Origin: a virus | Taxonomy: Duplodnaviria > Caudoviricetes | Reading direction: 5' to 3' (one strand) | IMG/VR virus record: IMGVR_UViG_3300038673_000301 | Span: 1 to 46,461 of that record | DNA length: 46,461 bases | Translations under genes and position numbers: made by a program | Notes under the pieces: generated by a model | What the model saw: only the letters and a program-made list of their open reading frames with translations | The model's database searches: none | What the model was told of the DNA's origin: nothing | Part shown: positions 3,762 through 19,138 of the stretch, one piece after another | Position numbering within the stretch: the stretch's first letter is position 1 | How the letters are laid out: the number at the start of each line of letters is the position of its first letter

Positions 3762-3997
3762 TACTCTTCGTATAACTTTATGTTGTTGTCGATGTCGGCT
3801 ATTATCCATATATAACGGCCCCCGCCCACATTTTTATATTTCGTGATAAACCCCCTGCCCACGGCCCGGCGCAACATACCAACATCCTGTAAAAACGATG
3901 GCAGTTCGTCGTGTGTAAACGGTTCATCCCGCGTAAACTTGTATAGTTTTTTTAACCAGATGGCAACCGCGCCCTGTGGTCTACGCCGGGCCGCCAT
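3761..3997 (-). CDS. Hypothetical protein, possibly winged-helix DNA binding
   Basis: Basic 78-aa ORF, helix then GFITKY..GGGRYIW beta-hairpin pattern. Confidence 0.55.
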   Translation of the reverse strand: MAARRRPQGAVAIWLKKLYKFTRDEPFTHDELPSFLQDVGMLRRAVGRGFITKYKNVGGGRYIWIIADIDNNIKLYEE

Positions 3998-3999
3998 GT

Positions 4000-4188
4000 T
4001 TACGGCCCCGGTGTTTCAAGTTCTTTTAAAATAACGGCTTGGGCCCCGTTTCCATAATCGATAAATATAAACGTGTGCCCCACCTGCACGCCCGGCAGCC
4101 CGGTTAAAATAACGGACAACTGTTCAAAGTCTATTGTTTCGGTATCAAGCGTTAGCCCACTTTCACCGTTTAAAATATTTATGTTCAT
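4000..4188 (-). CDS. Hypothetical protein
   Basis: 62-aa ORF with GGAGG RBS, tightly packed. Confidence 0.6.
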   Translation of the reverse strand: MNINILNGESGLTLDTETIDFEQLSVILTGLPGVQVGHTFIFIDYGNGAQAVILKELETPGP

Positions 4189-4622
4189 TTAAACTTCCTC
4201 CATTTCTCTATAACCGGCCCCGCGTCCCATGTTATAACAAAAACCGGCTTGCAGAACCAACATTCATCCCGGCGCGACATAAACCAGTCATCCGCGTGTT
4301 GGAAATCCTCGAAACCATCCAGCCGCGCCCATTCGTCGCGCTCTTCCCGCGACATTTTATATATATCAACTTCTTCAATTTTTAGAACTTTAACTGTCCC
4401 AAAATGGTTCGTATGATGTGGACACGGGGCCCCGTCGCTTCCCGCCCTTTCACATTCGGCAATACAGTTATGACAGCCGCGTTTGTGCCGGGGTTTAAAA
4501 TATAAATGAAGTTCAGAACCGGCCCGTATCCGCCGGCGGTTTGAAGAACGGGTCGTTTGGCATTTCGCCCCGGTTTTTATGGGGTCTACGTGCTTCCGTT
4601 CACTAAACATCATCATAACCAC
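4185..4622 (-). CDS. ASCH/PUA-domain protein with Cys-rich insertion
   Basis: IKTGAKCQTTR (GxKxxxxR), G.ELHLY, FGTVKV and ARLDGF motifs. Confidence 0.75.
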   Translation of the reverse strand: MVMMMFSERKHVDPIKTGAKCQTTRSSNRRRIRAGSELHLYFKPRHKRGCHNCIAECERAGSDGAPCPHHTNHFGTVKVLKIEEVDIYKMSREERDEWARLDGFEDFQHADDWFMSRRDECWFCKPVFVITWDAGPVIEKWRKFK

Positions 4623-4852
4623 CGGCAGCCCCCCGTCTGTGTGTGTCCGCCCACGGCCCGGCGTTTGTGAATAACGGTTGTATCACACATAGAACATCTA
4701 TAAGTTTCTACGACCGTGTAATATGCTTCAGTAACGCTGCCCATAATCCGCGCCGGGGCCGGGTCCAGCCCGGTAAAACAGAACGGGCAGCGGTGTTCTT
4801 TTTGTATTGAAATCAGGTTACACGCCCCCCATAATTTCTTCAAACTGTTCAA
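4613..4852 (-). CDS. Zinc-ribbon protein
   Basis: CPFC...CSMC. Confidence 0.6.
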   Translation of the reverse strand: MNSLKKLWGACNLISIQKEHRCPFCFTGLDPAPARIMGSVTEAYYTVVETYRCSMCDTTVIHKRRAVGGHTQTGGCRWL

Positions 4853-5258
4853 CGGCGCCGGGGTGTGATTCCGTTACGTGGCCGGCGACGTCGTCCACCA
4901 CTTTTTTAAGAACGATCGCCGGCAGCAAAAGTTCGTCTTTCCGTAGTTTGGCCGCTTGTGCCGGCTTCTTATGTTCGCGCATTTCATACAATATGAATAT
5001 ATCGCGCGCGGCGTCCGTGACCATTGAAACCAACCGGCCCAACTGTGATTGGTTCGGGTGTTCCGGGGCCCATCTGATAAGAAGTTCGCCGGCTATGTGC
5101 ATGATACGCCCACGGGCCAGCCACTTGCCCCGGCCTTCCTGTCCTGCAGCCAGTTCATATTCTGCTATCAGGTTTTTTAGAATGTTTACAAGGTCATCGT
5201 CGGTATAATCCACTGTTCTAAAATCCTTCTTCTCAAAATTCTCTCCGATGTTGAACAT
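4818..5258 (-). CDS. Hypothetical helical protein
   Basis: 146-aa ATG ORF in the operon. Confidence 0.7.
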   Translation of the reverse strand: MFNIGENFEKKDFRTVDYTDDDLVNILKNLIAEYELAAGQEGRGKWLARGRIMHIAGELLIRWAPEHPNQSQLGRLVSMVTDAARDIFILYEMREHKKPAQAAKLRKDELLLPAIVLKKVVDDVAGHVTESHPGAVEQFEEIMGGV

Positions 5259-5262
5259 ATTA

Positions 5263-5880
5263 TCACTTCACAAAATATTTCCAATACAAGTCAATAAAAT
5301 ATTGGGTTTCAAAACAAACCATTTTTAAATCTTCCTTTTTATATTCAGGGTTGGCCCGGTGAACCTTCCGTATCTTCCGCAGCCGTTCATACCGCGACCG
5401 CCGGACCCCGGACATTAACGCCTTTATTTGTGGGGTCGTGCGTTTATGAACTTGCGGGAATTTTTTAATATCTTTCAACGCGGCCCGGCGGGCCTCTGCT
5501 GCTAAATACCGGCCGTGTTCGTCCCAATATCGCTCGACCATGTATTTAGTTTCCACACAAAAAACCAATAATTCATGTTGCGTCGCGTGTGGGTGTTTCT
5601 TATGGTATTCATGCAGCCGATTTATCCGGGCATCGCGCATAACTTTTTTCACATGTTGTTTATTACAGAACAATTCAAACTGCACATCTTCACGCGATAC
5701 CGGGGCCTTAGATTCCGTTAGTTCAATGTATAACGGCACTTTAAATCGTATTTTGCATCTTTCGCATACCCAATGGCCGGCGCGGGGTCGGCGATATACG
5801 CAACCATAGCGCCCACACATCGGACACGCGGCCCGCTTCCGGGTTATGACGTCGCCAACTTCCGGCATTCCGAATTTCAA
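5263..5880 (-). CDS. Zinc-ribbon protein with two tandem basic helical repeats (possible regulator)
   Basis: CPMC..CERC; repeats RINRL..HP...EL...C.ET.Y.V..YW and RLRKI..NP...DL...C.ET.Y.I..YW; GGAGG RBS before TTG. Confidence 0.7.
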   Translation of the reverse strand: MKFGMPEVGDVITRKRAACPMCGRYGCVYRRPRAGHWVCERCKIRFKVPLYIELTESKAPVSREDVQFELFCNKQHVKKVMRDARINRLHEYHKKHPHATQHELLVFCVETKYMVERYWDEHGRYLAAEARRAALKDIKKFPQVHKRTTPQIKALMSGVRRSRYERLRKIRKVHRANPEYKKEDLKMVCFETQYFIDLYWKYFVK

Positions 5881-5962
5881 ACTTTAAAACGCCTCCTTTA
5901 TCGTTTTTAATATGTATTTATTCCTTTAAATTACTTCCGGCCCGCCTAAAAGGTATAGGTTC

Positions 5963-8785
5963 TTAAATTTTTCCACCGGACGCGATATACAGCGCGCATA
6001 GGTCCGGGCACATTTCTTTAATAGTCTGTGTCCTTATATAGCCCGCCCGCTGTTGAATTATTGAATTAACGTGATACAGCGACTTGGTGAAGTCATAATC
6101 TGTCTGTTTCTCAAATAGTTTAGCCAGTTGTGCCGGGTCGTGTATACCACTGTTATAAAATTCCCGGACTATGAAAATTCTCATCCAGTGTCCTTCCGGG
6201 CCCTCCAAACGCTGATTTATAGCCCAATTAAATATCGGCCGCGCCTGTCCGGGTATGACCGCTTCGACGGGTTCCTGCTCTTCGTCCGGATCCGGTTCAG
6301 GTACGAAACCGGATATATCAACTTCCCAAATAATTAATTTTTCAAAGTTTTCTACAAACTCACCATCGATAAAAATTTTGCTTTTGTTCCCGGTCTTGCG
6401 GTGTGTCGCGAACGGCAGCTTAACCAAATTACCGTATCCTTTGCGGCTTAGTTTCGTCTGCTTCGGGTAAACCTCACATTTAACACCGGCCGCCTTTATA
6501 ACCGCCCGGCCCCACGCGCGCGCCGTTTTCGCGTCTATCTTTTTCAGAATAACCCATATATGATAACTGTGGGGCGTGCCGGACGCTTCAAGGATATATG
6601 GAACATCGGCTTTATCCAGCGTGCCGCGCAACTTTGTTAAATCGTTTTCGGCCCGTGTAACTGTTTTTTTATAGTCGGCCTCGGTGTCCTCTTCCTTCCG
6701 GTGTGCATCAATGTCAAAACACACCCAACGCACCATGTTTTTATTATCAAGTGTGTACGCACCTATTGTTATTTTGCCGGCTATATGGTTATCTATCAAA
6801 GTTTCGGTTATTGGTGCCGACACTTTAAAAAAACTTCCATTGATGCCCTGCTCTGCATAAACATCAGTACGCGAAAGTAACACGAATAGCAGTTCTCTTG
6901 GTAAATATATTTCATCTGAAATTTTTAAATTTATCCCTATAGAATAATATATAGGGACGTTTTTTAAAATTTCAGATGAACTATATTTATTCTGTTTGTG
7001 TTTGACTGCCTTTTCAACCATATCATTAAAGCCGGCGCATCTTGATATTTGCGGCTTTGTAATTTCTTTTGAAGTGTTCACCGCCGAACACCGCCGGAAA
7101 TCGCCTTCCGTGTTAGAAATATCACACATTCTCCCAAAGCCCCACGTTACAAAATTAACGCATTTTTCATACGTGCAGCCAAAAGCAAATACAAGCGACG
7201 GTTCCACGCCGGCCGGGTCCTTAACCCGCGACCACGCCTGCCAAGTATCACTATGCACAGCCTCTTCTCTGAGAATCAAGGCTTCGTCGTGTGTTTCACA
7301 CAACACATCGAAAGCATTGGACGGTTTTTCGGCCGCGCCCACGGCAATCATAACCCTGCAATTCGACGCGACGCCCATTGTTTCAGGTGCTTTATAGTAC
7401 GTGACCGCGTGCGGGTGCCCACAATTTTTAAGCCCTTCCTGCAACAGCCGGGCCTCTTTTATGGACATTGTAATTATAATACAGTCGTCGTCGCCGTACA
7501 TTTCCAAAACCCTTATGATTTTGTCCATCACTTCGGTACTCTTTTTGTAAAGTGAGTTGCGGCCAATCGTGCCAAAGTTCTTTGTGTCGGCCAATATCAA
7601 CATTTTTCTATTTGTCTGCATCGGGTCGCCCTGATACCCGAACATAATATCTTTAATCTGTGTGCCCGGCATGAAATAAAGATTTTTATAATCGTGGCTG
7701 CAGATGGTCGCCGACGTTAAAATAATCCGCTTATCTTTATTTTGTATGGAATATATAAAAGATTGAATAGAATCTTGGAACATTTTATCGACGGCGGTTA
7801 GCATCGCCTTTATTTCGCCGCCTTCCCGGATAGCGTTTATTTGTATTTGTTCACTTGCCAGAATGTTCATCATTTTATATATTTGTAGTATGTCGTCCAT
7901 TGACAGTCCATACTTTCTTCTGTTCTCCGTTAAAGTTATTATTTCGTTATAACACGCAACAATTTCTTTTTCTGTCAGGTCACTGTATGAATTTTTAAAG
8001 GTTTTTGATAGTTTCCGTTTAAAAAATTCCGGGTCTATTGAATCCATATAAACTAACATTATACCGTTTTTTATAGTGTCGTCCTGCACCAACAGATAAA
8101 AATTACTAACTACCTTCCGTATTTCTTTAAAATCGTCGGCCGCCGGCACGAACTTTTCGAGTTTAAGCCACTTATCCACGTTCTTTTCATTGTCGTAAAC
8201 ACATATCGATTCGGTCCGCCCATATTGAATTTCGTGTATCTCATCGAAAACCACGTTCCGGGCCGTTGATATTTTTTCGATTATGCGTTCTGCTGTGGTG
8301 TTCGGCCGGCTTCCGCTTGCTATCATCAAAGCAACCAGCTTTTGATAGGTTAGGGCCACGCCCTGAAATTTTGCATTGTGTAAAATACTTGTTACCGGGC
8401 ACGAATAATAATATTCACAATCTGCACATTTTTCGGCCAAAGGCAAAATAGGCAACCGTTTAAGGTCCGGGCACACCATACACCTTTCTTCGTTTTTTAG
8501 ACAGTTGTGATTAGATGGTATGTGTATAACATTCTCGTGCTTGCCGGCCATATCTGAAAACTTAACGGCGTCTTTTATAACCGTGTCGTCTGCAATCCTG
8601 TTTGTGGGTACAAGAACTAAAAAACTTTCGTTTCTATTGATACTTTCGGCTATTAGCGCCGTTGTGGCCCCGGCCCGCGTGGTCTTATAGGTTATCAGCA
8701 CGCCGGTTTCATAGGTTTCATAAATCCCGTGCGCCGTCAGTAAACGCGGGTCCGTGTTTATAACTTTTTCAATTGTTAAAACCAG
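5963..8785 (-). CDS. Replication protein: SF2 helicase-like domain + archaeo-eukaryotic primase (AEP) + PriL/PriX-like C-terminus
   Basis: VVFDEIH (DExH), ILTSAT, QAWSRV; AEP motifs WVCFDID, EASG..SYHIWV, EVYPKQ, GNLVKLPF; C-terminal GHWMR..DYD. The frame is open upstream of the GTG at 8701 to a CTG at 8785 preceded by an RBS. Confidence 0.85.
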   Translation of the reverse strand: MVLTIEKVINTDPRLLTAHGIYETYETGVLITYKTTRAGATTALIAESINRNESFLVLVPTNRIADDTVIKDAVKFSDMAGKHENVIHIPSNHNCLKNEERCMVCPDLKRLPILPLAEKCADCEYYYSCPVTSILHNAKFQGVALTYQKLVALMIASGSRPNTTAERIIEKISTARNVVFDEIHEIQYGRTESICVYDNEKNVDKWLKLEKFVPAADDFKEIRKVVSNFYLLVQDDTIKNGIMLVYMDSIDPEFFKRKLSKTFKNSYSDLTEKEIVACYNEIITLTENRRKYGLSMDDILQIYKMMNILASEQIQINAIREGGEIKAMLTAVDKMFQDSIQSFIYSIQNKDKRIILTSATICSHDYKNLYFMPGTQIKDIMFGYQGDPMQTNRKMLILADTKNFGTIGRNSLYKKSTEVMDKIIRVLEMYGDDDCIIITMSIKEARLLQEGLKNCGHPHAVTYYKAPETMGVASNCRVMIAVGAAEKPSNAFDVLCETHDEALILREEAVHSDTWQAWSRVKDPAGVEPSLVFAFGCTYEKCVNFVTWGFGRMCDISNTEGDFRRCSAVNTSKEITKPQISRCAGFNDMVEKAVKHKQNKYSSSEILKNVPIYYSIGINLKISDEIYLPRELLFVLLSRTDVYAEQGINGSFFKVSAPITETLIDNHIAGKITIGAYTLDNKNMVRWVCFDIDAHRKEEDTEADYKKTVTRAENDLTKLRGTLDKADVPYILEASGTPHSYHIWVILKKIDAKTARAWGRAVIKAAGVKCEVYPKQTKLSRKGYGNLVKLPFATHRKTGNKSKIFIDGEFVENFEKLIIWEVDISGFVPEPDPDEEQEPVEAVIPGQARPIFNWAINQRLEGPEGHWMRIFIVREFYNSGIHDPAQLAKLFEKQTDYDFTKSLYHVNSIIQQRAGYIRTQTIKEMCPDLCALYIASGGKI
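6911..6980. repeat. 70-bp imperfect palindrome, copy A (inside the helicase-primase gene); candidate origin or recombination site
   Basis: TTCATCTGAAATTTT...AAAATTTCAGATGAA with core TCCCTATA-N8-TATAGGGA; 67/70 identical to the reverse complement of 15111-15180. Confidence 0.9.
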
Positions 8786-8823
8786 TTTAAAACGCCCCCG
8801 TTGTTCTAAGATACGCCACGTTC

Positions 8824-8840
8824 TTATTTAACGGTTTGCT
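8824..8840 (-). promoter_or_regulatory. Putative promoter of the replication operon
   Basis: Minus strand AGCAAACCGTTAAATAA, about 40 bp upstream of the CTG start. Confidence 0.45.
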
Positions 8841-8990
8841 GTGTACGTTTTTGTTTGTTCCGGTTTAAAATTCTAATACCTTTATAGAAATGCAGCAACC
8901 ACGATCGGGAAACTTCTTTACGTGGCCTGCCTTTAAAATTTAGGCTATAAAACCGCTTTTTAATGGTCCTGTACTTATTCAATCTTGTTA

Positions 8991-9206
8991 TTATATCACC
9001 CTGTAATAATCCTTTAAATCACGATAAAAAACATAGCATGTCGCACACTGTCCCATAGCACCGGGCATTGGGCAGCATGTTACCGTTGCTTTTTTTACAA
9101 TGTTGTGGACCGGGCACCATATATAACCTTTTTCATAAAGTTTAAAAACATCATAGAATTTTATCAGTCCGCCGTCCATGCATTTTTCAAACTTCCTTAT
9201 GTTCAA
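8991..9206 (-). CDS. Small Cys-rich hypothetical protein
   Basis: WCPVH...CC...CATC. Confidence 0.55.
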   Translation of the reverse strand: MNIRKFEKCMDGGLIKFYDVFKLYEKGYIWCPVHNIVKKATVTCCPMPGAMGQCATCYVFYRDLKDYYRVI

Positions 9207-9229
9207 ACGAATCTTTCATGCCCCCGCTA

Positions 9230-9297
9230 TCATTTCGTTTCTAAGGCACTTTTTAAGCCCGACACGGCATTTTACCCCCGGTTAATAGAAATATACC
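9230..9297 (+). repeat. Intergenic repeat family, copy R1
   Basis: TCATTTCGTTT..TTTTAAGCCCrACACGGCATTTTrCCCCC..AATAGAAAyATA shared with 44304-44370; TAAGGCACTTTTTA shared with 14853. Confidence 0.75.
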
Positions 9298-9302
9298 GAC
9301 CC

Positions 9303-9467
9303 TCATTTGTCCGGCTCTCTCCGTGGTTCTGTATGCTTTGTCGGGCCTAATCTATAAGGATATAGCAAGCACTTTTCCGACGTACACCGTTCAACTTCCG
9401 CGTAACTCCCCACACAATTTTTACAATGTCGGTGAATCACCTTTAACAACGAATTAACAGTTATCAT
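9303..9467 (-). CDS. Small Cys-rich phage protein (54 aa)
   Basis: Manual translation ...IHRHCKNCVGSYAEVERCTSEKCLLYPYRLG..., a CxxC...EVxxC...CxLYPYRxG pattern common in viruses. Confidence 0.7.
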   Translation of the reverse strand: MITVNSLLKVIHRHCKNCVGSYAEVERCTSEKCLLYPYRLGPTKHTEPRREPDK

Positions 9468-9480
9468 TTTTTAATATACC

Positions 9481-9585
9481 CCCCGTTTTTTAGCCCCGTA
9501 AACCACACAAAAAGCCGGGCAATACTAACACACCACCCCGGCCATAAAAACGCCGTGTTGGGCCTCTGGCTCAATCGTCGGGCCC
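9481..9585 (+). repeat. Intergenic repeat family, copy R2 (degenerate)
   Basis: TTTTTAGCCC..AATACTAACACACC..ATAAAA.C.CCGT..GGCTCAATC..GGCCC, collinear with 14853-14959. Confidence 0.55.
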
Positions 9586-9784
9586 GTTTGGCTCATCGTA
9601 ATAGTACGGGCTTTCGTCGTTTGTCTGTGTACTGTCAAACAATATTTGGTTATATGCTTCAAAGGTCCCCGGCTCTTCGGTCCGGCCAAAAATCAGATTG
9701 TGCAGCCATTTAAAAAAACCCATGTTCATAAACTCCTATTCTTTTTTTCGCTATTTCTAAATATTCTTTTTCAATACGGTCATT

Positions 9785-10429
9785 TTACAACATCCCGAAC
9801 GGCTCGTTTAAAAGATTGCAGTCAAAGAAAACTTCTTTATAATGATAACGTAACCATTGCCGGTTGGCCCATTCCATTTTTTTTACAGCCCCGGCCCGGT
9901 CGCCGCACCACATTATAAAAACCTTATAATCATATCGCGGCCCGATGCTATTTGCCAACGCATACCGCGACGCCAACGACGCGCCCCGCTGGCCCGCCGG
10001 TTTATAGTTTAAAAATTTATCTACAGTACATTCCGCCCCGATTACCATATAAGAACACCGGGGGTCGTCGATGGCCCGCTGACATTCGTTTTTGAATCGG
10101 TCCATATCATAAATAAGCGTGTTGTATAAATCGCTTTTTTCTTTGCGTTCCCAAAAAACACCCGTCTGCAACGGTTTAAGCGTTTTTTTATTCATGTAAT
10201 ACGGCAAAAAACAATGATAGTCGCCCGTTTGTTCAAACCCGGTCGCGTCCTTCCTCTGCATTTTGCGCATCTGCTGGCCGGTTTCCTCTTCGGTATACGG
10301 GTATTTTTCGTTGGCCGCGTATTCGTAATAAATGGGCACCGACCGCGCCCATTCTCTTAAATGTGTTACTGGCTCGAAGCCTATTGATTCCCTTATAAGT
10401 TCGTCGCGGTCGCGCCAACCATACGCCAT
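9785..10429 (-). CDS. ERCC4/XPF-like structure-specific nuclease
   Basis: NEKYP, TGDY, WERKEKSDL (ERKxxxD), RFKNECQR. Confidence 0.75.
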   Translation of the reverse strand: MAYGWRDRDELIRESIGFEPVTHLREWARSVPIYYEYAANEKYPYTEEETGQQMRKMQRKDATGFEQTGDYHCFLPYYMNKKTLKPLQTGVFWERKEKSDLYNTLIYDMDRFKNECQRAIDDPRCSYMVIGAECTVDKFLNYKPAGQRGASLASRYALANSIGPRYDYKVFIMWCGDRAGAVKKMEWANRQWLRYHYKEVFFDCNLLNEPFGML

Positions 10430-10572
10430 TATAATTCCCGCCGGATAATGATATAAACCCGGTCCATACGGTCTTCGATTTTTGTGACCCGCGCCAGAAT
10501 TTCCTCAAGAAGTTCTTTTTCTGTCGGTTCCGGTTTGGGTCGCGGCATTCCAATTGTTGCTTCTTCGGTCAC
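10429..10572 (-). CDS. Small coiled-coil protein (47 aa)
   Basis: Manual translation ..TEKELLEEILARVTKIEDRMDRV..; TAATG overlap with the nuclease gene. Confidence 0.45.
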   Translation of the reverse strand: MTEEATIGMPRPKPEPTEKELLEEILARVTKIEDRMDRVYIIIRREL

Positions 10573-10724
10573 TTTTTCACTTCCTCACAAAATGTTCTTA
10601 TTGCTGTAAAAATCTTCCACGTTTCATATCTTAATTTCCGTGGTTTCTCCATGTAAATTTCTGTTATTTCCTTCGCTGCTTCCTCTGAAACTTCTATAAA
10701 AAGTTTTATTTCCTTCGCCCCCTC

Positions 10725-11066
10725 TCACCTTCCGCCTGCAGCCGCTTCTTTATACCGTCTGAACTTTCCGGTTTCCCGATCGTATATTATAAGTTCCGCG
10801 CCCCACTGCCACACATTGTCGGTATATTTCGGCCACGGCAGCAATGATGATTCCCATTTGCCCCCGTGCCGGCCGACCGCTGTTATAACTTCGTTAAGTT
10901 CTTCTAAGTCTACAACGTCGGTTGTTAGCGCCTGCAACTCTGTTAAAAAAACGTCCCGTGTTAAAAGGTAGTTTTCTTTTTCCCGCGCCAAGATTTCTTC
11001 AATTTCCGCTATCCGCTGTTTTATGTCGCCCTTTGCGTTTTCCATTTCTACCACTTCCCGGCCCAA
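10725..11066 (-). CDS. Hypothetical protein with N-terminal coiled coil
   Basis: 113-aa ORF; probable ATG at 11045 after GGAAGTGG. Confidence 0.65.
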   Translation of the reverse strand: MGREVVEMENAKGDIKQRIAEIEEILAREKENYLLTRDVFLTELQALTTDVVDLEELNEVITAVGRHGGKWESSLLPWPKYTDNVWQWGAELIIYDRETGKFRRYKEAAAGGR

Positions 11067-11243
11067 ATTCTTTTGAAAAGTCTGCTCGCTTAACTTTTTG
11101 CATTCGTTTAATCTACCCCCGTGTATAAATAATCTTCCTCTGTTGGTGTCGGCCGTGTTTCCCGTGCTTTCCTTTCCAAAACATCAACGCGTTTCCGCAA
11201 CGCGGATAACTCGGCCGTTATATAGTCCAGCCTATCAAGTCTA

Positions 11244-11477
11244 TTAACCTGTGTCAATATCAGCACCCCCGTACAACTCTACGTCGTCGTTTACCCCCGC
11301 GCCGAGTTTTTTTAGTATGTATTCCATAGCCGCCTTCGGTTCACATGGGCCGCTCGTGTCCTGTGCATGTTCACATATAGCACATTCCCGGCACGCACAG
11401 CCGGCCGCCAGTATTCCGAGTACGCGGTGTTTTTCACGCCGCCCCATTTCGTCTATTTGCTCTTTCGTCGGTATCAT
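11244..11477 (-). CDS. Cys-rich hypothetical protein
   Basis: CACRECAIC...C; ATGA overlap. Confidence 0.6.
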   Translation of the reverse strand: MIPTKEQIDEMGRREKHRVLGILAAGCACRECAICEHAQDTSGPCEPKAAMEYILKKLGAGVNDDVELYGGADIDTG

Positions 11478-11749
11478 TCCACATCGTCACCTTCCACACT
11501 TAGTTCAAGTGTTTTATACGCAAGCACTTTATAAAAAGTTTCGTATCGTGGTATCCAGCCATGTGCCCGGTCGTCGTCCCGGCCGTTCTCATAAAAAACA
11601 AATGCGAATTTCCCGGCCCCGCGTTCCTCTATGTGCCCCACTTCGGCCACGCGGCGGCCCATCAATATTTTATCGCCTTCCTGCAACTTAAACGCCGGTA
11701 TTACTGCAACGTGCGCGAATATAACCGGCTCATCTATTATCTGTTTCAT
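11474..11749 (-). CDS. Hypothetical protein (SH3-like beta barrel possible)
   Basis: PAFKLQEGDKILM..VAEV pattern; RBS GGGGG. Confidence 0.65.
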   Translation of the reverse strand: MKQIIDEPVIFAHVAVIPAFKLQEGDKILMGRRVAEVGHIEERGAGKFAFVFYENGRDDDRAHGWIPRYETFYKVLAYKTLELSVEGDDVE

Positions 11750-11870
11750 TGTGCCCCCGTTCCAACGCGCGCCGTATCTTGATTAATTCGCGCAGCGTGA
11801 TCACACATGTAAAAAAAATCGCGCAAAACGCGAACAAACCAACGGCAGACAATTCTATATAAAGTGTCAT
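11730..11870 (-). CDS. Small membrane protein (46 aa)
   Basis: Manual translation MTLYIELSAVGLFAFCAIFFTCVITLRELIKIRR; GGAGG RBS. Confidence 0.55.
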   Translation of the reverse strand: MTLYIELSAVGLFAFCAIFFTCVITLRELIKIRRALERGHNETDNR

Positions 11871-11873
11871 GGT

Positions 11874-12068
11874 TCAACACCTCCACAAAAACTCTAAATC
11901 GTCGTCTATAATGGCCGTTACAGTGTTGTCTAATACAAGCATAACGGCGTCGGGCGGCACGAACCACGATGTAAAATCTATTTCACGGCCCGCCGCCGTA
12001 AGCCCGCGCCCGGTTTCATCGTCTTTTGTGGCTATCCAGTAGTGCCCGGTTCGCTCAATCGTCGTCAT
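11874..12068 (-). CDS. Hypothetical protein
   Basis: ATG at 12068 (MTTIERTGHYW) after GAGGTG. Confidence 0.6.
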   Translation of the reverse strand: MTTIERTGHYWIATKDDETGRGLTAAGREIDFTSWFVPPDAVMLVLDNTVTAIIDDDLEFLWRC

Positions 12069-12276
12069 TGTCAAACACCTCATCCAAACATTTTTGACAC
12101 ATTCCCGAAATAGTGTATTCCTTTTTGTCTTGTTCGGTCCTGAAGTCACTTTCTACAATTCTTTTTCTACACGTTGGACAAAAACCAGCTTTTATGTCAT
12201 CAACGCAATTTGGATATATAAGCCGGGCAAACTCCCATCGGTCGGGGCATTTGTCAAAATCGGGTTTTATAAGCAT
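12055..12276 (-). CDS. Zinc-finger hypothetical protein
   Basis: CPTC...EYTISGMCQKC. Confidence 0.7.
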   Translation of the reverse strand: MLIKPDFDKCPDRWEFARLIYPNCVDDIKAGFCPTCRKRIVESDFRTEQDKKEYTISGMCQKCLDEVFDNDDD

Positions 12277-12485
12277 TATTCCACCCCCGCCGCCGCAAGC
12301 CTTATAAGCGCGCTGTCTATGTCACCTATCAACATTTCGGCCATTTCGCTTTCGGCCCCGTTGGAAACACCCACGCTTAAACATTTCCGTAGCTGTGTAA
12401 GCGCCCGGACAACTTCTTCCCGGTCAATGTTGAAAACAACCTCGAACCGTATTCCATCAATACTCATGCGTGCGCCGCCTCCCAT
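12276..12485 (-). CDS. Hypothetical protein
   Basis: Probable start MSIDG after GGAGG; TAATG coupling. Confidence 0.6.
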   Translation of the reverse strand: MGGGARMSIDGIRFEVVFNIDREEVVRALTQLRKCLSVGVSNGAESEMAEMLIGDIDSALIRLAAAGVE

Positions 12486-12627
12486 GCTTTTTTAGCTGTG
12501 TTATAACATTGCCGGCACAAATACTTACCCGGCCCACACGGGTTTCTGTAATAATCGTGTTCTCTGTCACATCTGGCACATTGCCAAACCGGTTTGTTTC
12601 CGTTCATACCGGGTTCGTTCTCATCGT

Positions 12628-12837
12628 TCATTCAAAATGCCTCCTTATACTAATATCCTCTATGTGCTGCATGTATTCGACAAAATCCAACAGCGACATA
12701 CTACTATAAAATAAATTAAATTCGTAGTATATCCGGGCCCGTTCTGCAAGACCCGCCGCGTCATACGGCTTTATATATTGCCTTATTAAAGTGGGTTCAA
12801 TCAAAGCCATTAAGGCTTCTTGCGTGTATTCCGGCAC
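12628..12837 (-). CDS. Hypothetical protein
   Basis: GTG start after GGAGG. Confidence 0.6.
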   Translation of the reverse strand: MPEYTQEALMALIEPTLIRQYIKPYDAAGLAERARIYYEFNLFYSSMSLLDFVEYMQHIEDISIRRHFE

Positions 12838-12879
12838 TGTATCGCCTCCGGTTTTTACTAGCTTGTTATCTCTGAATCC

Positions 12880-13212
12880 TCATGTGTAACCCTCGATCGG
12901 TTCGTATGGTATCGCCTTTATATCGTCGGTCCCGTCGTCGTCCGGGTCGTCGGTGTTTTCCATTAACATTTCAATCATAACCACGCCGCAAATAACAGCA
13001 TAAGCAAATGCCATCGCCTTCTTTCCGAATTTATCATATACCCGGCACAACATCGTAAATTTATCATCTTCTATGGTGTACTGTTCCATTAAAAATTCAA
13101 TAATTTCGTCGGTGTTGTCGGGTGCCAGCCCCTCACACACAAATTTATTATCAGATGTGACATATAACCGCTTGCCCGGACTTATTTTTAACTGTTTTAT
13201 AATCGTGGACAT
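12880..13212 (-). CDS. Hypothetical protein; N-terminus weakly similar to the 540-1648 paralogs
   Basis: IIKQLKI...LYVTSD. Confidence 0.65.
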   Translation of the reverse strand: MSTIIKQLKISPGKRLYVTSDNKFVCEGLAPDNTDEIIEFLMEQYTIEDDKFTMLCRVYDKFGKKAMAFAYAVICGVVMIEMLMENTDDPDDDGTDDIKAIPYEPIEGYT

Positions 13213-13227
13213 TGTAAACCCCTTTGA

Positions 13228-13260
13228 TAAAAAAACAGCCGGGTTATATTAAACCCGGCC
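13228..13260 (-). terminator. Hairpin plus oligo-T terminator-like element
   Basis: Minus strand GCCGGGTT-TAATAT-AACCCGGC-TGTTTTTTT at the end of the 13244 gene. Confidence 0.5.
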
Positions 13261-13534
13261 GAGCCATTTTAATCATGTCGTACATAGCCTCTGCTATCGC
13301 AATGCCGGCCAAAACGCCTTCTACATACTCTATATACACATCACCATATTTTTTATGTACATCTGATAAAGTATCAATTTTTGTGCGTGGTTCGTTGCCG
13401 GTCAAATCTGAAAAAACAAGCATGTCTATAGAATCACGGGCCGCCGCGTCTTTTTCACTTAGTCCCCACACAATAACATCGTTTATGGTTGTTATTACGC
13501 GCCCGTTATCAAGTTTAAGCGTCTGTTCTGTCAT
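13244..13534 (-). CDS. Hypothetical protein
   Basis: 96-aa ATG ORF in the operon. Confidence 0.65.
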   Translation of the reverse strand: MTEQTLKLDNGRVITTINDVIVWGLSEKDAAARDSIDMLVFSDLTGNEPRTKIDTLSDVHKKYGDVYIEYVEGVLAGIAIAEAMYDMIKMARPGLI

Positions 13535-13892
13535 CGTTTCTTGTCCCCGTTCCTTTTATAACTACCTTCTTTTCTGGCATCTCGGTTGATATCGAATTTA
13601 TGATGGCATCCAGCCGCCCGGCGTCGGATATTACCGCCAGTTTCATTTTTTTAGTTTCGTCGTCGAACTTTTTAAGATGTGTTTTAATGTAACTTTCTTT
13701 ATCAAGTCCACCGATGCTTTCCAGAAGGTCGCGTATGGTTAAACACATTAAAAAAAGTTCGCTTGTGGTGCTGTTATATTCTGCACCCAACGAACTTTTA
13801 AAAACTTTACGCTGTGCCGACCGGGCTGCTGATACGGTTTTTATGGCGTCCTGCACCGCCGGGCTAAACGCCGTATTATTCGCCCCCGGCAA
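13515..13892 (-). CDS. Hypothetical helical protein
   Basis: 125-aa ORF overlapping both neighbours. Confidence 0.6.
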   Translation of the reverse strand: MPGANNTAFSPAVQDAIKTVSAARSAQRKVFKSSLGAEYNSTTSELFLMCLTIRDLLESIGGLDKESYIKTHLKKFDDETKKMKLAVISDAGRLDAIINSISTEMPEKKVVIKGTGTRNDDRTDA

Positions 13893-14187
13893 TTCTTTTT
13901 ATAAATTCTTCCATTGTCTGACTAAAGAACTGCATCCCTAAAAAGAACCACACGGCCCGCTCGGTTATTTCGTCGCCGAGTTTTTCCTGTACCCGCAACA
14001 ATATGTCAATGGTTGCTTCATGCGCCCGCAGCCCCCCGGCGATAATTTCCGCCGTCGCCCGGTGGGTTTCTGGTGGCACCACGGCTTCGTAGTCCACGCC
14101 GCGTTCGGTTGCTTCTATCGTCCGGCCGTCTTTAAATATAACCTTTTTGCCTAATATGGCTTTTGTCCGTTCATCTATCTCTTCCAT
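13876..14187 (-). CDS. Hypothetical protein (start MEEID at 14187)
   Basis: GGAGG upstream of ATG 14187; the upstream part of the ORF-track call overlaps another gene. Confidence 0.6.
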   Translation of the reverse strand: MEEIDERTKAILGKKVIFKDGRTIEATERGVDYEAVVPPETHRATAEIIAGGLRAHEATIDILLRVQEKLGDEITERAVWFFLGMQFFSQTMEEFIKRIAGGE

Positions 14188-14422
14188 TACTTTCTGCCTC
14201 CATTTGCTGAATTTTATACACTGCACCCCGAAAACTTTGTATAGAACTTCCGGGCCATCTTCCCAAAGATTCGTCGATATCATCAAAACCCATCCGCAAA
14301 ACTTCGCGCGCATAATAAATAACTGCCTGTTGTATAGACAATTGATACTTTTCAAACATTGTTTTGATGTAGTCCGACGAAACATTAAAAAAAGTTTCGT
14401 TTTTCTCAATCATTGTTATCAC
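14171..14422 (-). CDS. Probable helix-turn-helix protein
   Basis: LSIQQAVIYYAREVLRMGFDDIDESLG..SIQSFRGAVYKI resembles a sigma region 4/LuxR-type HTH. Confidence 0.5.
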   Translation of the reverse strand: MITMIEKNETFFNVSSDYIKTMFEKYQLSIQQAVIYYAREVLRMGFDDIDESLGRWPGSSIQSFRGAVYKIQQMEAESNGRDR

Positions 14423-14745
14423 GTCCTGAAAACAAGCCGCTTTCCGGTCCAGCCGTCCTTCTCCATGTGGTCGTGTATCCTCTTCAGCCTGTCGCCGGCG
14501 CGTTCAATTATCGCAAGCATGGGCGGGATTTCGTCGGGGCCAAGTGTTTCTCCCTTCTTAATATAGAACTGTACGCCGTCCCGGCCCGTGATGGCCAGCC
14601 CGGTTCCGTCCTCGGTTGCGTAAACATTCGGCCGCCCCAATAGATACTCGGCCGGCAATTCGGACCGGTTAAGGGCCTTAATGGTTTCTACTCTGTACAT
14701 TCGTTTGTTGTTGTCGTATACCGACACAAAACCAACTTTCAACAT
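14419..14745 (-). CDS. Hypothetical protein, first gene of the operon
   Basis: ATG with AGGAGG RBS and a promoter upstream. Confidence 0.75.
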   Translation of the reverse strand: MLKVGFVSVYDNNKRMYRVETIKALNRSELPAEYLLGRPNVYATEDGTGLAITGRDGVQFYIKKGETLGPDEIPPMLAIIERAGDRLKRIHDHMEKDGWTGKRLVFRT

Positions 14746-14789
14746 ACTGTGCCTCCTTTTAGTAATACACTTTAAACTATAACAACATT

Positions 14790-14806
14790 GTATTTAAATG
14801 TTTGTG
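14790..14806 (-). promoter_or_regulatory. Archaeal promoter
   Basis: Minus strand CACAAACATTTAAATAC, about 45 bp upstream of ATG 14745. Confidence 0.55.
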
Positions 14807-14852
14807 TAATAGTCACAACATTTCACCGCGTCGCCCGCTTACATTTTAATTT

Positions 14853-14959
14853 TAAGGCACTTTTTATGCTCGTGGCTGCGTTCTACCCCCTTAGTAATAC
14901 AAACATACCAGCCACAAATAAAATCCCCGTACAAGTCGCCCGGCTCAATCCTACGGCCC
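14853..14959 (+). repeat. Intergenic repeat family, copy R3
   Basis: Left half matches R1 (TAAGGCACTTTTTA..TACCCCC..TAATAsAAAyATACC); right half matches R2 and R4. Confidence 0.7.
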
Positions 14960-15110
14960 ATATAACCCCCGGCACTAACGCCCCACACAGCCACAAAACG
15001 GCCGGGGTTTCCAGTGGAAACAAAGGTACTATATAAACTTTTTATAAAACCACAATTATAATTACATGCAACCAAACACGGGTGGGTTTTTTATTACATC
15101 ATAATTTTAA

Positions 15111-15180
15111 TTCATCTGAAATTTGAAAAAAAGTCCCTATATATTATACTATAGGGATAAATTTAAAAATTTCAGATGAA
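15111..15180. repeat. 70-bp imperfect palindrome, copy B (intergenic, AT-rich flanks); candidate replication origin
   Basis: Its reverse complement differs from 6911-6980 at only 3 positions. Confidence 0.9.
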
Positions 15181-15269
15181 CAATATTTATACGGTTATAA
15201 TAACGCCAGCCGGTCTTGATATGCTTTTTAATATATTAAGCGGGATATAATTTTTTATATACTTGGCCG

Positions 15270-16388
15270 CTACTGTACAAAATTGTGTCTGATTGTGCCG
15301 GCTAAGTTTACAAGGTATGCAATTATTTCCGCGTGGCCCGGCCGATAGTTTCCCAACTGTAGGACCGTGTGTGCGTTGTCTTTTTCGATAACATGCTGCA
15401 CCCGGTTTACTCTGATATTATCCATAACGCGCCGGCCGTTTACTATCTGAGAAGGTACATTAACCTGTACTAAATCGCCGGGTTCCGCCGCCGGTTTCAA
15501 ATACAAGGTTGCGTTGCCTGTAACTTCCGGTTCCTGTCCCAATAAAAAAAGCGCGCGCGCAAGTTCCCGGCACATTTCGTTAGTTTCAATGCTCGTGTCG
15601 GTTTCTAAAATGTCCCGGTCGCCCACACCGCCGCCAATAAACGCGCTTCTCTGCACCGTGCCTTCGGCGCCGTAAACTGTAACAGAATGTACCATGTCGG
15701 TTAAACTTGTTATAAAGTCGCTTGTGACGTAGTCCCGGCTGCCCTCTGCAACACGATATTTTTCCGTTGGTTCAGTTGGTATTGGTTGCCAACTTGCGTA
15801 TAAATTTTTTAATGTGTTGGTTTCGTCATAATATGGAATAACATCGAATTTATATTGTAACAGTTCGGCCTTTTCCATAAAGTTTAGAACATCCTTAAAA
15901 TATGTTGCATCGGCCTTTACATTGTAATTTTGTAAAACGGTTCCTTCATAATTTATATATGTTGCCCCGGCCCGGTCGGCAATGGTCGTTAGTTCGGGCA
16001 AAACCGTTTTTATTATGGTCCCGGTATCAACATTAACAAAATTATAATTATTCCGTATAAGTCTATTTACAAGTTCCAGCCCATGCCCGTACGCCGTTAT
16101 ATCGTATTCGATGCTTGTTGCCCCCGTCCGGCCCGCAATTTCTTTTATCCGGCCGCTAAATAGTTCTTTCCACACGCCGCCGGGTTCCATCACCTGCAGC
16201 CGGATAATATCATTTCCGCGCGCTGTTGGTACCGATGTGTATTGAAACCCGGCGCCCATGACCGCCAATTTTATGTTAGCCGTCGGGCAAACCCACGGGT
16301 GCGTTTTTGTTATTGTTGCGCTTAATAGTTCGGGATAATACATATCATAAGGATATGTCGGCCGCTGTATAATGGTTCTGAATTTCAT
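15270..16388 (-). CDS. Baseplate hub / tail-tip protein
   Basis: LFSGRI, ITAYG, EPGDLVQV, RVNRVQHVI..TVLQLG motifs typical of hub proteins; last gene of the tail operon; start MKFRT. Confidence 0.7.
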   Translation of the reverse strand: MKFRTIIQRPTYPYDMYYPELLSATITKTHPWVCPTANIKLAVMGAGFQYTSVPTARGNDIIRLQVMEPGGVWKELFSGRIKEIAGRTGATSIEYDITAYGHGLELVNRLIRNNYNFVNVDTGTIIKTVLPELTTIADRAGATYINYEGTVLQNYNVKADATYFKDVLNFMEKAELLQYKFDVIPYYDETNTLKNLYASWQPIPTEPTEKYRVAEGSRDYVTSDFITSLTDMVHSVTVYGAEGTVQRSAFIGGGVGDRDILETDTSIETNEMCRELARALFLLGQEPEVTGNATLYLKPAAEPGDLVQVNVPSQIVNGRRVMDNIRVNRVQHVIEKDNAHTVLQLGNYRPGHAEIIAYLVNLAGTIRHNFVQ

Positions 16389-16392
16389 GCGT

Positions 16393-19137
16393 TTAGCCCA
16401 ACTTTCGTTCTCTGAACTGTAAATCGATACGCGCCGCCGCGTAAACGCCGCTTTGCTGTTCCAATACAAGCGTATTGCTGCCTTGTGTAAGGCTTATTAG
16501 CTGTGCGTCGTTGGTGTCCAGAACGGCGCTTATCTGAAGGTCGTTTATATATACGGCCGACATCATATCAGAATATATTTTTATCCAGATAACCGTTTCG
16601 CCGTCAAAATAGACGCCGCCGGCCGCCGATTTTAGTTCGTATGTGGTGTCGGTGTTTTCTATAAGTTCGTCGTCAATGTCCCAAAATTTCGTGGGTGTTT
16701 CGCCGGTCGTGGTGTCCTTTGCTACCATGACCCGGCCGCCGCCGCCGTAATTCGTGTCCTGTTCAAAATCCAGCCTTATCGTTGGGGTTCCAACAATTGG
16801 ATATAACACCGGAATTTTATATATAACGTAGCCGCCCGGCATCATTGCCAGCCAATTGTGCGCGCTCTGAACCACGACCAAAGAAGCATTATAAGAATCT
16901 GCTTTATATTTATAGGTTGTATAATTATCTCTGTATGTATAGCTACCGGTTCCATCTGCATTAATAACCACAACGGCGCCCACGGGTAAACACGATGCAA
17001 GGTTTTCTTTAATGTTCGGTTCTACGTCATTATATAACGCGGCGTTTGAAACGTGCCCATATCCCTCGAAAACCATGTGTGGCGCGGTCGCGTAAATTTC
17101 GTACCCGTTCCTGACGGCATAAACATATTCGTTTAGCGCGTCGCACATCGAAAAAGACACATTGCCGCTGCCCGTACGTGTTATTTCGATATAATAATAT
17201 TGCAGTGGATGCAACTTTATGTGTGGTGTGGCCGGAACTTCGTTTGCGCTCATGGTAAAAACAACGTCGCCTGCCGCTGATATTGTCGCGCTGCCCTGTC
17301 CCAATAACGTCGTTTTTTCTACACTGTCGTATACACTACATAAGAAAGTTCCGGCGGTTGTTACTTCCCTAACATGTGTTTTTATGGTGTCTACGGCCAC
17401 GGGCAACGGGCAATCGATTATAAATTTGTATCCAATGTTATATGTCCCGTCTACTTGTCCGAGTTCCTTTGTAAGTGGACCCGGTGTTGCTGTTGCCGCA
17501 AGACCCGCACCACTCTTTGCAACTATTTGTGATGTCGGCACATCTGTATCATATAATAAAAGTTTTACACGTCCGCCCCCGCCGGCACCCGCGTATTTTA
17601 CCAGCGCGCCGTATGCGTAAGCCGTGCCGGCGCCGCCGACCGCGTATATCGTGGACCCGGCCGACATTTCAAGTTCTTTTGTTATTAAAAGTATGCCGCC
17701 GCCACTACCGGACCCGCCGCGCCATGAACTGTATATTTCGCCGCGCGTGCCGTTGGCGGTTATGCTTCCGATACCTACCAACCTTATAAACTCGGCCCTT
17801 AGAATAATGCATCCGCCGCCACTTCCGCCGTTACCGGTCGCGCCCACGGTGCCGGGCCCCGCTGCACCGCCGCCACTTCCGAAAGTTATATCTGTATAAA
17901 CATTTGTGCCGTATACGGTCCCGCCGCTGTCCGGCGATGTTGCGTAGCTTCCGGGTTCACCTATCCAGCCATATCCCCCACCGCCGCCGTATCCGTTTGT
18001 AACGCCTTTACCACCGCCGGGCCCGTTACCATTTGTTAAGCCGGCGCGGCCGCCGATGTATCCTTTGCCCGTGGCTGTTAGGTTTCCGCCTATTTCAATA
18101 GTCCGCGCCCGTATTTCCAGCGCCGTTCCTTCGCTTGCTGTCATATCTGATTGACTAACAGTTGCGCCCGATGCTATGACAAAGTGCCTTATATTGTAGT
18201 GTAAGCCGTTTATAATCGTGCTGTCTGTAATATACCAATCTTCGCCGCCGTGGTCGCCGCCGCCTTCGTTGGTCCACTGTTCTATATATTCGACGGGTAC
18301 TGTTCCGGTTCCTGTCTGTTTGTAATATGCATATATCTTTATCCGGCCTGCTGCACCGCCGCCGCCGGTGTAATTGTAGGTCGCCATCCCCGTATTAAAT
18401 GGAAATGTCACCGGGTCGCCGCCGGTTGCTTCAATTACCGAACCGCTATCAACCGTTAGTCTTACGGCAACTATGAGTATACCGCCGCCGCTACCGGACG
18501 CCCCGCGCCATGTTGCTGTTGCCTGTCCCGTAACGGTTCCGGGGTCGCCGGACGGTATAAGCGCGCCCGGACCGCCGTTGGCCTGTATAATTCCGGTGCT
18601 TCCTATTGTGATGTTGTCGCCCCTTAGAATAATGCACCCGCCGCCCCGGCCGCCTTTGCCGACCTGTGCATCTGTGCCTAAATCATAATTTCCGATAGCA
18701 CCGCCGCCGCTGCCGTGTGAAATGTCGTCGCTTCCATACGTACCATAAGGCAAACCAGCATAGCCGGTATACGGCCCGCCGGGTTCCTGTCCCGCCGTTG
18801 AATAGCCTGCACCGCCACCGGTGCCCCACGTCCGATGGCCTTTACCGCCGCCGGGCCCGTCGCCGCGTCCATCCACCGACCCGCGCCGGCCGCCGTGATA
18901 TCCGGTTTCGTTTCCGTTAAGCGTGCCTTCTATAAGAATATTTTTTGCGCGGATATCAATTTTTGTAAGCATTTGGATAGCGGATTCGGCTTCGGTGTTG
19001 TCCCTGAGATATACGCTTATATTTCTTTGAATGTGGAATGTTCCAATATTATAATGATACCCGGATATTATCGTATTGTGTGCCGGCGACCAGTCGTCGC
19101 CCCCATGGTCCCCGCCGCCAATGTCCGTCCATGCCAT
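16393..19137 (-). CDS. Glycine-rich minor tail / receptor-binding protein with a duplicated Gly-rich domain
   Basis: Two homologous units (WTDIGGGDHGGDDW.. and WTNEGGGDHGGEDW..) rich in GGGG motifs; downstream of the tape measure. Confidence 0.75.
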   Translation of the reverse strand: MAWTDIGGGDHGGDDWSPAHNTIISGYHYNIGTFHIQRNISVYLRDNTEAESAIQMLTKIDIRAKNILIEGTLNGNETGYHGGRRGSVDGRGDGPGGGKGHRTWGTGGGAGYSTAGQEPGGPYTGYAGLPYGTYGSDDISHGSGGGAIGNYDLGTDAQVGKGGRGGGCIILRGDNITIGSTGIIQANGGPGALIPSGDPGTVTGQATATWRGASGSGGGILIVAVRLTVDSGSVIEATGGDPVTFPFNTGMATYNYTGGGGAAGRIKIYAYYKQTGTGTVPVEYIEQWTNEGGGDHGGEDWYITDSTIINGLHYNIRHFVIASGATVSQSDMTASEGTALEIRARTIEIGGNLTATGKGYIGGRAGLTNGNGPGGGKGVTNGYGGGGGYGWIGEPGSYATSPDSGGTVYGTNVYTDITFGSGGGAAGPGTVGATGNGGSGGGCIILRAEFIRLVGIGSITANGTRGEIYSSWRGGSGSGGGILLITKELEMSAGSTIYAVGGAGTAYAYGALVKYAGAGGGGRVKLLLYDTDVPTSQIVAKSGAGLAATATPGPLTKELGQVDGTYNIGYKFIIDCPLPVAVDTIKTHVREVTTAGTFLCSVYDSVEKTTLLGQGSATISAAGDVVFTMSANEVPATPHIKLHPLQYYYIEITRTGSGNVSFSMCDALNEYVYAVRNGYEIYATAPHMVFEGYGHVSNAALYNDVEPNIKENLASCLPVGAVVVINADGTGSYTYRDNYTTYKYKADSYNASLVVVQSAHNWLAMMPGGYVIYKIPVLYPIVGTPTIRLDFEQDTNYGGGGRVMVAKDTTTGETPTKFWDIDDELIENTDTTYELKSAAGGVYFDGETVIWIKIYSDMMSAVYINDLQISAVLDTNDAQLISLTQGSNTLVLEQQSGVYAAARIDLQFRERKLG

Positions 19138-19138
19138 A

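Follow-up and report, generated by a model that had tools for sequence, protein, structure and literature searches.

The two matching palindromes present in the window, i.e. the whole 46,461-nucleotide stretch of viral DNA analysed (46,352 bp as a circle), are probably both binding sites for the viral Rep protein and origins of replication, judging from sequence comparison; copy B, which is shared with a sister virus, may account for most of the initiation. In the best reading, copy A, located inside the rep gene, would be the ancestral Rep origin and copy B a second, possibly the main, origin.

Copy A is an imperfect dyad of about 90 bp (6901..6990, strand not assigned), identified by its symmetry, DNA fold and conservation in the Rep family. 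Its outer boxes lie at 6911-6924 and 6967-6980 and its core arms at 6934-6941 and 6950-6957, separated by an A/T-rich 8-nt centre (6942-6949). Copy B (15111..15180, also strandless) is a non-coding dyad, identified by its match to A, its DNA fold and its counterpart in the relative G001, with outer boxes at 15111-15124 and 15167-15180 and core arms at 15134-15141 and 15150-15157. The inverted 70-bp pair reported in the preliminary description was confirmed: 6911-6980 and the reverse complement of 15111-15180 agree at 67/70 positions, with differences at positions 33, 49 and 56 and none in the initial 32 nt, and at 81/90 when 10-nt flanks are added; the chance level for copy A in 100 locally shuffled genomes is 40/70 at best and 36 on average. 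The copies also agree at 54/70 in direct orientation and, because each is itself a dyad (self-symmetry 56/70 for A and 52/70 for B), the label "inverted" rests on the asymmetric positions only and does not carry over to G001. The symmetry of copy A extends to about 45 bp from the centre (72/90). The core pattern occurs in the window as two exact matches and one with 3 mismatches, 0.05 being expected at up to 3 mismatches, and the 8-nt centre between the core arms is asymmetric and almost entirely A/T. Folding of the DNA gives z values from -5.4 to -10.2 across both strands of the two copies (-8.6 and -10.2 for copy A). The copies are 8-11 kb apart, corresponding to 18% and 20% of the circle in the window virus and in G001, respectively.

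The rep gene (5963..8701, minus strand) is a 912-aa ORF coding for an SF2-type helicase (about residues 1-550), a linker and an AEP-TOTE primase (629-783); its reading frame remains open for 42 codons beyond, to 8827, and both in the window virus and in G001 it lacks a standard start codon at the position where relatives carry one. The minus-strand translation of copy A, SSEILKNVPIYYSIGINLKISDE, starts at residue 575, downstream of the helicase motifs and upstream of the AEP-TOTE match, so that its in-frame location between the two domains, as first described, holds. The N-terminal domain is a ResIII/DEAD-type SF2 helicase and the primase domain matches PF22548 (E 5e-25); the protein also matches PDB 7nqd (E 2e-31), presumably the Marinitoga CRISPR-associated primase-polymerase. 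A resemblance of the C-terminal helices to PriCT/PriL-CTD/PriX can be considered only as a lead. No DNA-binding domain was located in Rep, which counts against the binding proposed here.

The conservation of the palindrome in homologous rep genes, put forward earlier as a check, was found across the family. A dyad of about 90 bp occupies the same linker in 40 non-redundant SF2-helicase/AEP-primase loci, a set that excludes 10 loci below 35% identity; its letters vary while the symmetry is kept. In L073, and in the majority of the 10 excluded loci, no clear dyad is seen. At positions 17-45 from the centre, which played no part in choosing the centre, 697 of 1160 cells pair in the 40 loci, versus a mean of 408 and a maximum of 484 in row shuffles, and the count drops to 271-418 when the arms are slid by 1-3 bases. 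Moreover, among 19 disjoint pairs of loci, left-arm changes are compensated in 101 of 171 cases, versus 12-25% when slid. G·T pairs are no commoner than A·C pairs (6 vs 9; 49 vs 73) and the outer-arm offset is zero in 35 of the 40 loci; a duplex dyad or a cruciform thus fits better than an mRNA stem. Two measures count against this picture. Judged by its inner-arm score alone, the dyad outranks all other gene windows at just 29 of 50 loci, and at 27 of 40 loci the strongest fold of the gene falls in the linker. Altogether, a constraint at the DNA level is found at one fixed place within the initiator ORF, as expected for an origin embedded in a gene. A purely protein-level constraint at copy A was rejected, since residues change as the symmetry of the DNA dictates. 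Rep and dyad are found together in tailed viruses and in integrated elements whose neighbouring genes differ, and no comparable dyad was found in two proviruses that have a related tail module and lack this Rep nearby (best 24-26 vs 27-34). A packaging signal was also discarded: the dyad is present in the integrase-flanked loci L022 and L023, where no terminase was found among the ORFs scanned.

Copy B has a more restricted distribution. As already proposed, it lies at the boundary of the late and early regions, in the gap between the last tail-module gene (15270..16469, minus strand, weak match to a PHROG tail protein), ending at 15270, and the first early-region gene (14419..14745, minus strand), starting at 14745; read in the rep frame, it contains a TGA stop. 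G001 is the one syntenic relative, with a Rep 59% identical, a gene 47% identical to the tail-module gene in the equivalent position, and an ORF starting at 10216 that is equivalent to the early gene. Its counterpart of copy B is found in the corresponding gap, at about G001:10657-10738, and the distance from copy B to a promoter-like repeat shared by the two viruses is 305 and 343 bp. No second copy was found in any of the 17 other long regions, and on a FastTree tree its presence in two sister viruses amounts to one evolutionary event. No third virus with two copies was found among viral contigs, in which the exact core pattern occurs in 13 stretches, only G001 being related; queries with tail proteins returned no match or G001 alone, the capsid query one 21-kb fragment ending short of copy B, and the shared-repeat pattern one unrelated contig. 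The core of copy B is perfect in the window virus and degraded in G001; such decay is easier to reconcile with a site that is only bound than with an origin in full activity.

Comparison of the half-sites in the two viruses separates the parts of the dyad. Identity of the outer boxes is 0.91 within a virus and 0.52 between the window virus and G001, whereas that of the core is 0.94 in both comparisons and that of the spacer 0.48 and 0.49. All four boxes are thus alike within a virus and unlike between viruses, suggesting that they are bound by a virus-encoded protein, likely Rep; the match of B to A also indicates more than a hairpin, which by itself would not need it. In the proposed mechanism, Rep would recognise the outer boxes, the A/T centre of the dyad would melt, the SF2 helicase domains would be loaded in a back-to-back arrangement, and priming of both strands from one dyad would fall to the AEP domain, a single element thereby doing the job of an ssiA/ssiB pair. 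Copy B probably has a single origin that predates the split of the window virus from G001, and a second copy outside the gene would release the origin from coding constraint. The two copies may be held in step by selection for the same Rep and by occasional gene conversion, which would explain the 67/70 identity in the window virus. Thus, of the link to Rep-driven initiation originally drawn, the general idea gains indirect support from the palindrome travelling with the Rep family and from the virus-specific boxes; its paired, inverted, strand-specific form does not.

Strand composition gives weak evidence for an origin near copy B. The G/C skew at fourfold sites turns at 14.4 kb in the window virus (copy B at 15.1; bootstrap interval 7.9-18.4 kb) and at 12.8 kb in G001 (copy B at 10.7), with gene-order permutation p values of 0.034 and 0.0075; the local contrast at copy B is weak (z 2.5 and 1.2) and the skew reverses again near 34 kb, within late genes. 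Skew is confounded by gene class, because copy B coincides with the late/early boundary. In the GC skew, proposed earlier as a check, a turn is therefore seen, weakly, near B in both genomes and not at A in either.

Among the alternatives, the most substantial, although distinctly less probable, is that A is the sole origin and B a non-firing Rep-binding control site, acting by titration or handcuffing, as known for P1 incA and F incC, or as a roadblock or operator at the late-to-early boundary. The conservation of the outer boxes despite the decayed core in G001 points in this direction, as does the position of B, some 300 bp upstream of the first promoter-like repeat of the early region. Both two-copy viruses also lack the standard rep start codon of their relatives and encode no tyrosine integrase, features that might be expected of a prophage kept like a plasmid under tight control. 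Conversely, copy B of the window virus keeps its perfect core, the turn of the skew falls at B and not at A, the link with lifestyle is a single event, and an identical Rep is also carried by contigs of 121,425 and 54,921 nt, the longer of which might represent an integrated state. A further arrangement, which appears doubtful, is that in this lineage without integrase the origin is on its way out of the gene, with B as the working origin and A as a Rep-bound brake, pairing with B or halting transcription of rep between its helicase and primase parts. In combination with the non-standard rep start, this would determine how many copies of a plasmid-like prophage are maintained in the archaeal host. 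It is improbable that A and B cooperate in asynchronous strand displacement, one opening and the other priming the displaced strand 8-11 kb away. Stable DNA hairpins on both strands of A and B, their similar spacing in the two circles and the presence of primase and SF2-type helicase in one Rep are compatible with such a pair; the single copy in all 17 other long regions, the lack of an iteron array near either copy, the symmetry that makes neither strand-specific and the orientation of A and B in G001, which agree at 49/70 either way, speak against it. The paired ssiA/ssiB-like sites suggested in the preliminary description are accordingly not supported.

Recombination between A and B, with an inversion that splits rep as a switch or for double-rolling-circle amplification, is very unlikely. 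It would be favoured by the inverted identity of the window virus, with its 32 identical bases, by the 8.2-kb segment left without orientation in the contig graph in X1 and X2, and by run X5, in which copy A seems to carry the centre letter of B (68/70, deduced from contig breaks and difference counts), as expected for exchange between copies. Yet most family members have one copy only; in G001 the longest run of bases common to both copies is 18, and the two centres agree at 6/8 positions in direct versus 3/8 in inverted orientation. No match to PF00589 was found in either virus (G000 or G001), nor any recombinase or protelomerase among the 62 window ORFs scanned, so that the absence of a recognisable recombinase stands while the inversion switch proposed with it is poorly supported. 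Hybrid or fold-back joints were not listed in the contigs, which are blind to a crossover within the 32 identical bases, so that an inverted isomer of the window virus might exist; these data are read-derived contigs only, with flat depth per contig, without cover at B in X4 and without cover of the dyads in X6, X10 and X11. An equally slight chance is left for a role in transcription or RNA instead of replication, as terminator, processing stem or target of a host factor or of a small regulator made by the virus. On the minus strand the core of copy B does score as a stem followed by a T-run (1 found, 0.6 expected) and the centre is TATA-like, but G·T bias and bulge offsets are both absent, the transcribed strand of the window virus meets A and B in opposite senses, no Rfam match was found, and neighbouring genes change across the family with Rep constant; the virus-specific boxes also speak against a host factor.

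The preferred reading, Rep-bound origins, would supply a precise candidate origin, together with its initiator, for a family of replicons that is widespread among viruses and integrated elements of the Methanosarcinales and so far uncharacterised. The host is likely a methane-producing archaeon, an assignment based only on the names of Rep homologs and on disaggregatase-type domains. Rep matches occur in 27 of 284 genomes; at the DNA level, positions 1-20000 of the window matched the same 284 genomes only in the rep gene (two candidates scored per genome). No full-length relative of Rep was found among annotated plasmids and phages, and matches to the terminase were all about 23-25%. No description of the dyad or of the Rep family was found in the open-access papers searched. 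A precedent for methanogen vectors is described for the rolling-circle plasmid pC2A (PMC9569500); since the outer boxes differ from virus to virus, compatible replicons are predicted, a possible source of further vectors. Moreover, the two-copy lineage offers a natural test of origin/initiator co-evolution and of the reasons to keep a second origin.

Several known systems share single features with this one, and two of them, lambda ori and the stem-loop origin of pRN1, serve as precedents for the preferred reading. The HSV-1 origins oriS and oriL are bound by the SF2 helicase UL9, have inverted boxes flanking an A/T-rich centre and equip a single genome with several palindromic origins; in these respects they resemble the dyads as interpreted here, a likeness by description only, and differently from HSV-1 the primase is here fused to the helicase. 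Lambda ori falls in an inter-domain part of gene O, and repA of phage N15 contains an internal origin; we know of no second, non-coding palindromic copy for either phage. As in the window virus, the lambda site is thus embedded in its initiator gene (PMC6022878), but it consists of direct-repeat iterons and relies on host helicase and primase, as described in PMC5043065. N15 repA is reported as an SF2 helicase-DnaG fusion (PMC4889955), with the DnaG primase N-terminal to the helicase, whereas the viral Rep has the helicase first and an AEP primase. The dif site, like the dyad, is an imperfect inverted repeat about a short spacer, defined in PMC2958812 as 11-6-11 bp and conserved among related hosts; judged against that definition the dyads, of 70-90 bp with an 8-9-nt centre and arms up to 35-45 bp that vary from virus to virus, are not 11-6-11 dif sites. 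Nor do they correspond to the telRL sites of protelomerases: the 8-nt centre is asymmetric, no protelomerase was found among the ORFs scanned and no fold-back joints in the contigs.

In RSF1010, an AEP-type primase reads the stem-loops ssiA and ssiB once a helicase has opened them, as could be the case here, and these two priming sites, on opposite strands, are both needed; according to PMC4234260, three separate proteins (RepC, RepA and RepB') and iterons are involved, while the virus has one fused protein, no array of direct repeats close to either copy among the repeat families shown, and symmetric dyads that are 8-11 kb apart and single in most relatives. In the Sulfolobus plasmid pRN1 a stem-loop origin works with the AEP-helicase Rep ORF904, in which the AEP domain precedes an SF3 helicase, and the single stem-loop lies 3' of the gene (PMC4234260; PMC3869888). 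The viral Rep shares the AEP domain, but an SF2-type helicase comes first, no SF3 domain follows the primase, and the dyad lies inside the gene rather than 3' of it, with a second copy elsewhere. Nevertheless, in the accounts given by these sources, pRN1 and the BIP-1 phage stem-loop combine, as here, one AEP-plus-helicase Rep with a palindromic element of about 100 nt and no iterons (PMC4234260; PMC3869888).

The 70-bp palindrome and its inverted repetition, as reported in the preliminary description, are real: copy A (6911-6980) and copy B (15111-15180) match at 67/70 positions in inverted versus 54/70 in direct orientation, and the best match to copy A in 100 locally shuffled genomes is 40/70. 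Copy A is indeed encoded in rep, at residues 575-597 of the 912-aa ORF 5963-8701 (minus strand); copy B, when read in the rep frame, contains a stop. The genome is that of a tailed virus and forms a circle of 46,352 bp (repeat D6), the same length to which the contigs of sequencing runs X1 and X2 add up; a 55-nt repeat at the window ends closes it, and in 46353-46461 the last 54 bases do not continue the circle and resemble an assembly tail. The minus strand carries all annotated genes, among them those for terminase, head and tail proteins. Judging from how Rep homologs are named and from disaggregatase-type domains, the host probably belongs to the Methanosarcinales; a protein of 1223 aa (39545-43216), in which disaggregatase-related and CBM96 domains are recognised, likely serves host recognition or acts on the cell envelope.

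The C-terminal half of Rep is an AEP-TOTE primase, while the N-terminal half shows SF2-type motifs; of the 21 homologs scanned, 11 matched ResIII or DEAD (E up to 0.05), four of them, including that of the syntenic relative G001, above the Pfam cut-off. A resemblance of the final 120 residues to PriCT-1, PriL-CTD or PriX is no more than a lead. The order helicase before primase is unusual, since excerpts of PMC4889955 place the primase N-terminally in 94% of fusions; the same excerpts name SF2 the rarest class among replicative helicases. The rep frame is open for 42 codons above the GTG (8702-8827, minus strand); the conserved N-terminal motif of the family is encoded there, and this extension has no ATG, GTG or TTG. 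No standard start precedes the motif in G001 rep either (upstream of 1807), and in 32/36 homologs one lies 30 or more codons upstream of the KTT motif, the exceptions being the window virus, G001 and loci L049 and L056. A non-standard start is likely in the window, where a G-run is followed 9 nt on by a CTG (8785). Two recorded contigs, of 121,425 and 54,921 nt (clusters P0001 and P0121), carry an identical Rep and exceed the circle; their length may reflect integration, concatemer formation or a duplicated segment. Three elements with Rep of this family (L012, L015, L016) lie together on a single Methanolobus MAG contig, with nearly equal inner arms in two and different ones in the third; they offer a natural test case for incompatibility.

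Copy A is a family trait. Linker residues co-vary as a DNA palindrome would dictate (P/G, L/R or S, S/D; at least 120 homologs, among the rows listed). At the DNA level 94 rep loci span the linker, 50 of them non-redundant; dyad symmetry is kept across the 40 used for statistics (at least 35% identity; 10 dropped). Outer arms pair in 697/1160 cells, versus a shuffle mean of 408 (maximum 484) and 271-418 when slid; inner arms pair in 409/480, a count inflated, unlike the outer one, by choosing centres on the inner arms. Compensated changes amount to 101/171 in 19 disjoint pairs of loci, and to 12-25% when slid. G·T mismatches are no more frequent than A·C ones, and the two outer arms are not offset in 35/40 loci; the sequences thus point to a dyad in duplex DNA or a cruciform, and away from an mRNA stem. 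Three points weaken this reading: in only 27/40 loci does the linker fold better than every other window of its gene, synonymous shuffles all fall short of its fold in 28/40, and locus L073 has no clear dyad. In G001 and a second assembly (L059, L063) the sequence is broken exactly within copy A, leaving rep in apparent halves.

By sequence comparison, copy B is conserved in the lineage of the window virus and G001 only. The latter (52,295 bp, complete, syntenic; Rep 59% and terminase 65% identical) has its second dyad at ~10657-10738, again in the gap that follows the last tail gene and borders on the first early one (z 9.4, and 11.5 in the window). No second copy was detected in 75 other loci, many short (best 45/84), nor in 17 regions spanning 23-80 kb (z no higher than 4.9), several of them redundant and G002-G005 being incomplete records. 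Since the two Reps are sisters (support 0.998) yet 0.83 substitutions per site apart, copy B probably had a single origin followed by long retention. Two proviruses with a related tail module, in which 80 kb were covered and Rep of this family is absent, show no comparable dyad. A provirus with the related tail module and an ERCC4-type nuclease carries a DnaG-D5 primase-helicase and an integrase instead (L177:15005-18055), which shows exchange of the replication module. The window virus and G001 both encode DUF7004, which spans the window ends (2-310 and 46087-46368), and an ArdC-like gene in the G001 early region (L088:6825-7730) has no window match. They also share a ~35-57-nt repeat, three copies each in corresponding positions upstream of early gene blocks (window 9223-9279, 14834-14890, 44297-44353; G001 2644, 10354, 39908); it is preceded in G001 by a TATA-like box and may be an early promoter/operator or leader motif.

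Comparison of the four half-sites per virus gave identities within and between viruses of 0.94 and 0.94 for the core (5-12 bp from the centre), 0.48 and 0.49 for the spacer, and 0.91 and 0.52 for the outer box (22-35 bp). A hairpin requires symmetry within one copy only; the boxes of A and B match while the spacers are free, which implies either sequence-specific recognition by a protein of the virus or gene conversion in patches. In X5, a run from another study, both native flanks of A are present and B has its early-side flank; from contig ends and difference counts, copy A there would carry B's central letter, which fits conversion or plain polymorphism. Across the family the dyad is always accompanied by rep, with neighbours that differ, and Rep is the predicted binder. 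It would bind the outer boxes, the A/T centre would then open, and the helicase domains would travel apart with the primase starting one strand per direction; copy B would repeat this scheme outside coding sequence.

The main rival is that copy B binds Rep but serves regulation only. In the window, codon-adjusted G-versus-C skew at fourfold sites reverses at 14.4 kb (B at 15.1, A at 6.9; gene-order permutation p 0.034), and in G001 it does so at 12.8 kb (B at 10.7, A at 0.03; p 0.0075); it reverts near 34 kb within the late genes, and neither virus shows a turn at A. Leading strands are generally expected to be G-rich, which is not established for these hosts; if they are, the polarity weakly suggests a bidirectional origin at B. 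The signal is weak because the late/early boundary coincides with B and because the contrasts measured locally are small, at z 2.5 and 1.2. Neither reading offered in the preliminary description fits well. Paired strand-specific ssi sites are disfavoured by most relatives being single-copy, by the symmetry of each copy and by G001, where A and B match at 49/70 in either orientation (over 90 positions, 65 direct and 60 inverted). An inversion switch is not general: PF00589 is unmatched in both viruses, no identical stretch between the G001 copies exceeds 18 bases, and the dyad lacks the 11-6-11 dif layout that excerpts of PMC2958812 give for a host Xer-type site. In runs X1 and X2, possibly the source of the window, the contigs (38,142, 8,266 and 32 nt) contain no hybrid or fold-back joints, and are compatible with both orientations of the segment and so blind to inversion.

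The dyad/Rep system falls outside the pRN1, RSF1010, dif and telRL kinds, and searches of a set of open-access papers brought up none on this dyad or Rep family; excerpts of PMC9796341 mention no palindrome or origin. The dyad would work in the manner of the pRN1 stem-loop origin (PMC4234260, PMC3869888). Initiation by Rep at its dyads would be ordinary in kind and unusual in its form. Copy A, within rep, has a counterpart in lambda, whose origin sits inside the initiator gene.
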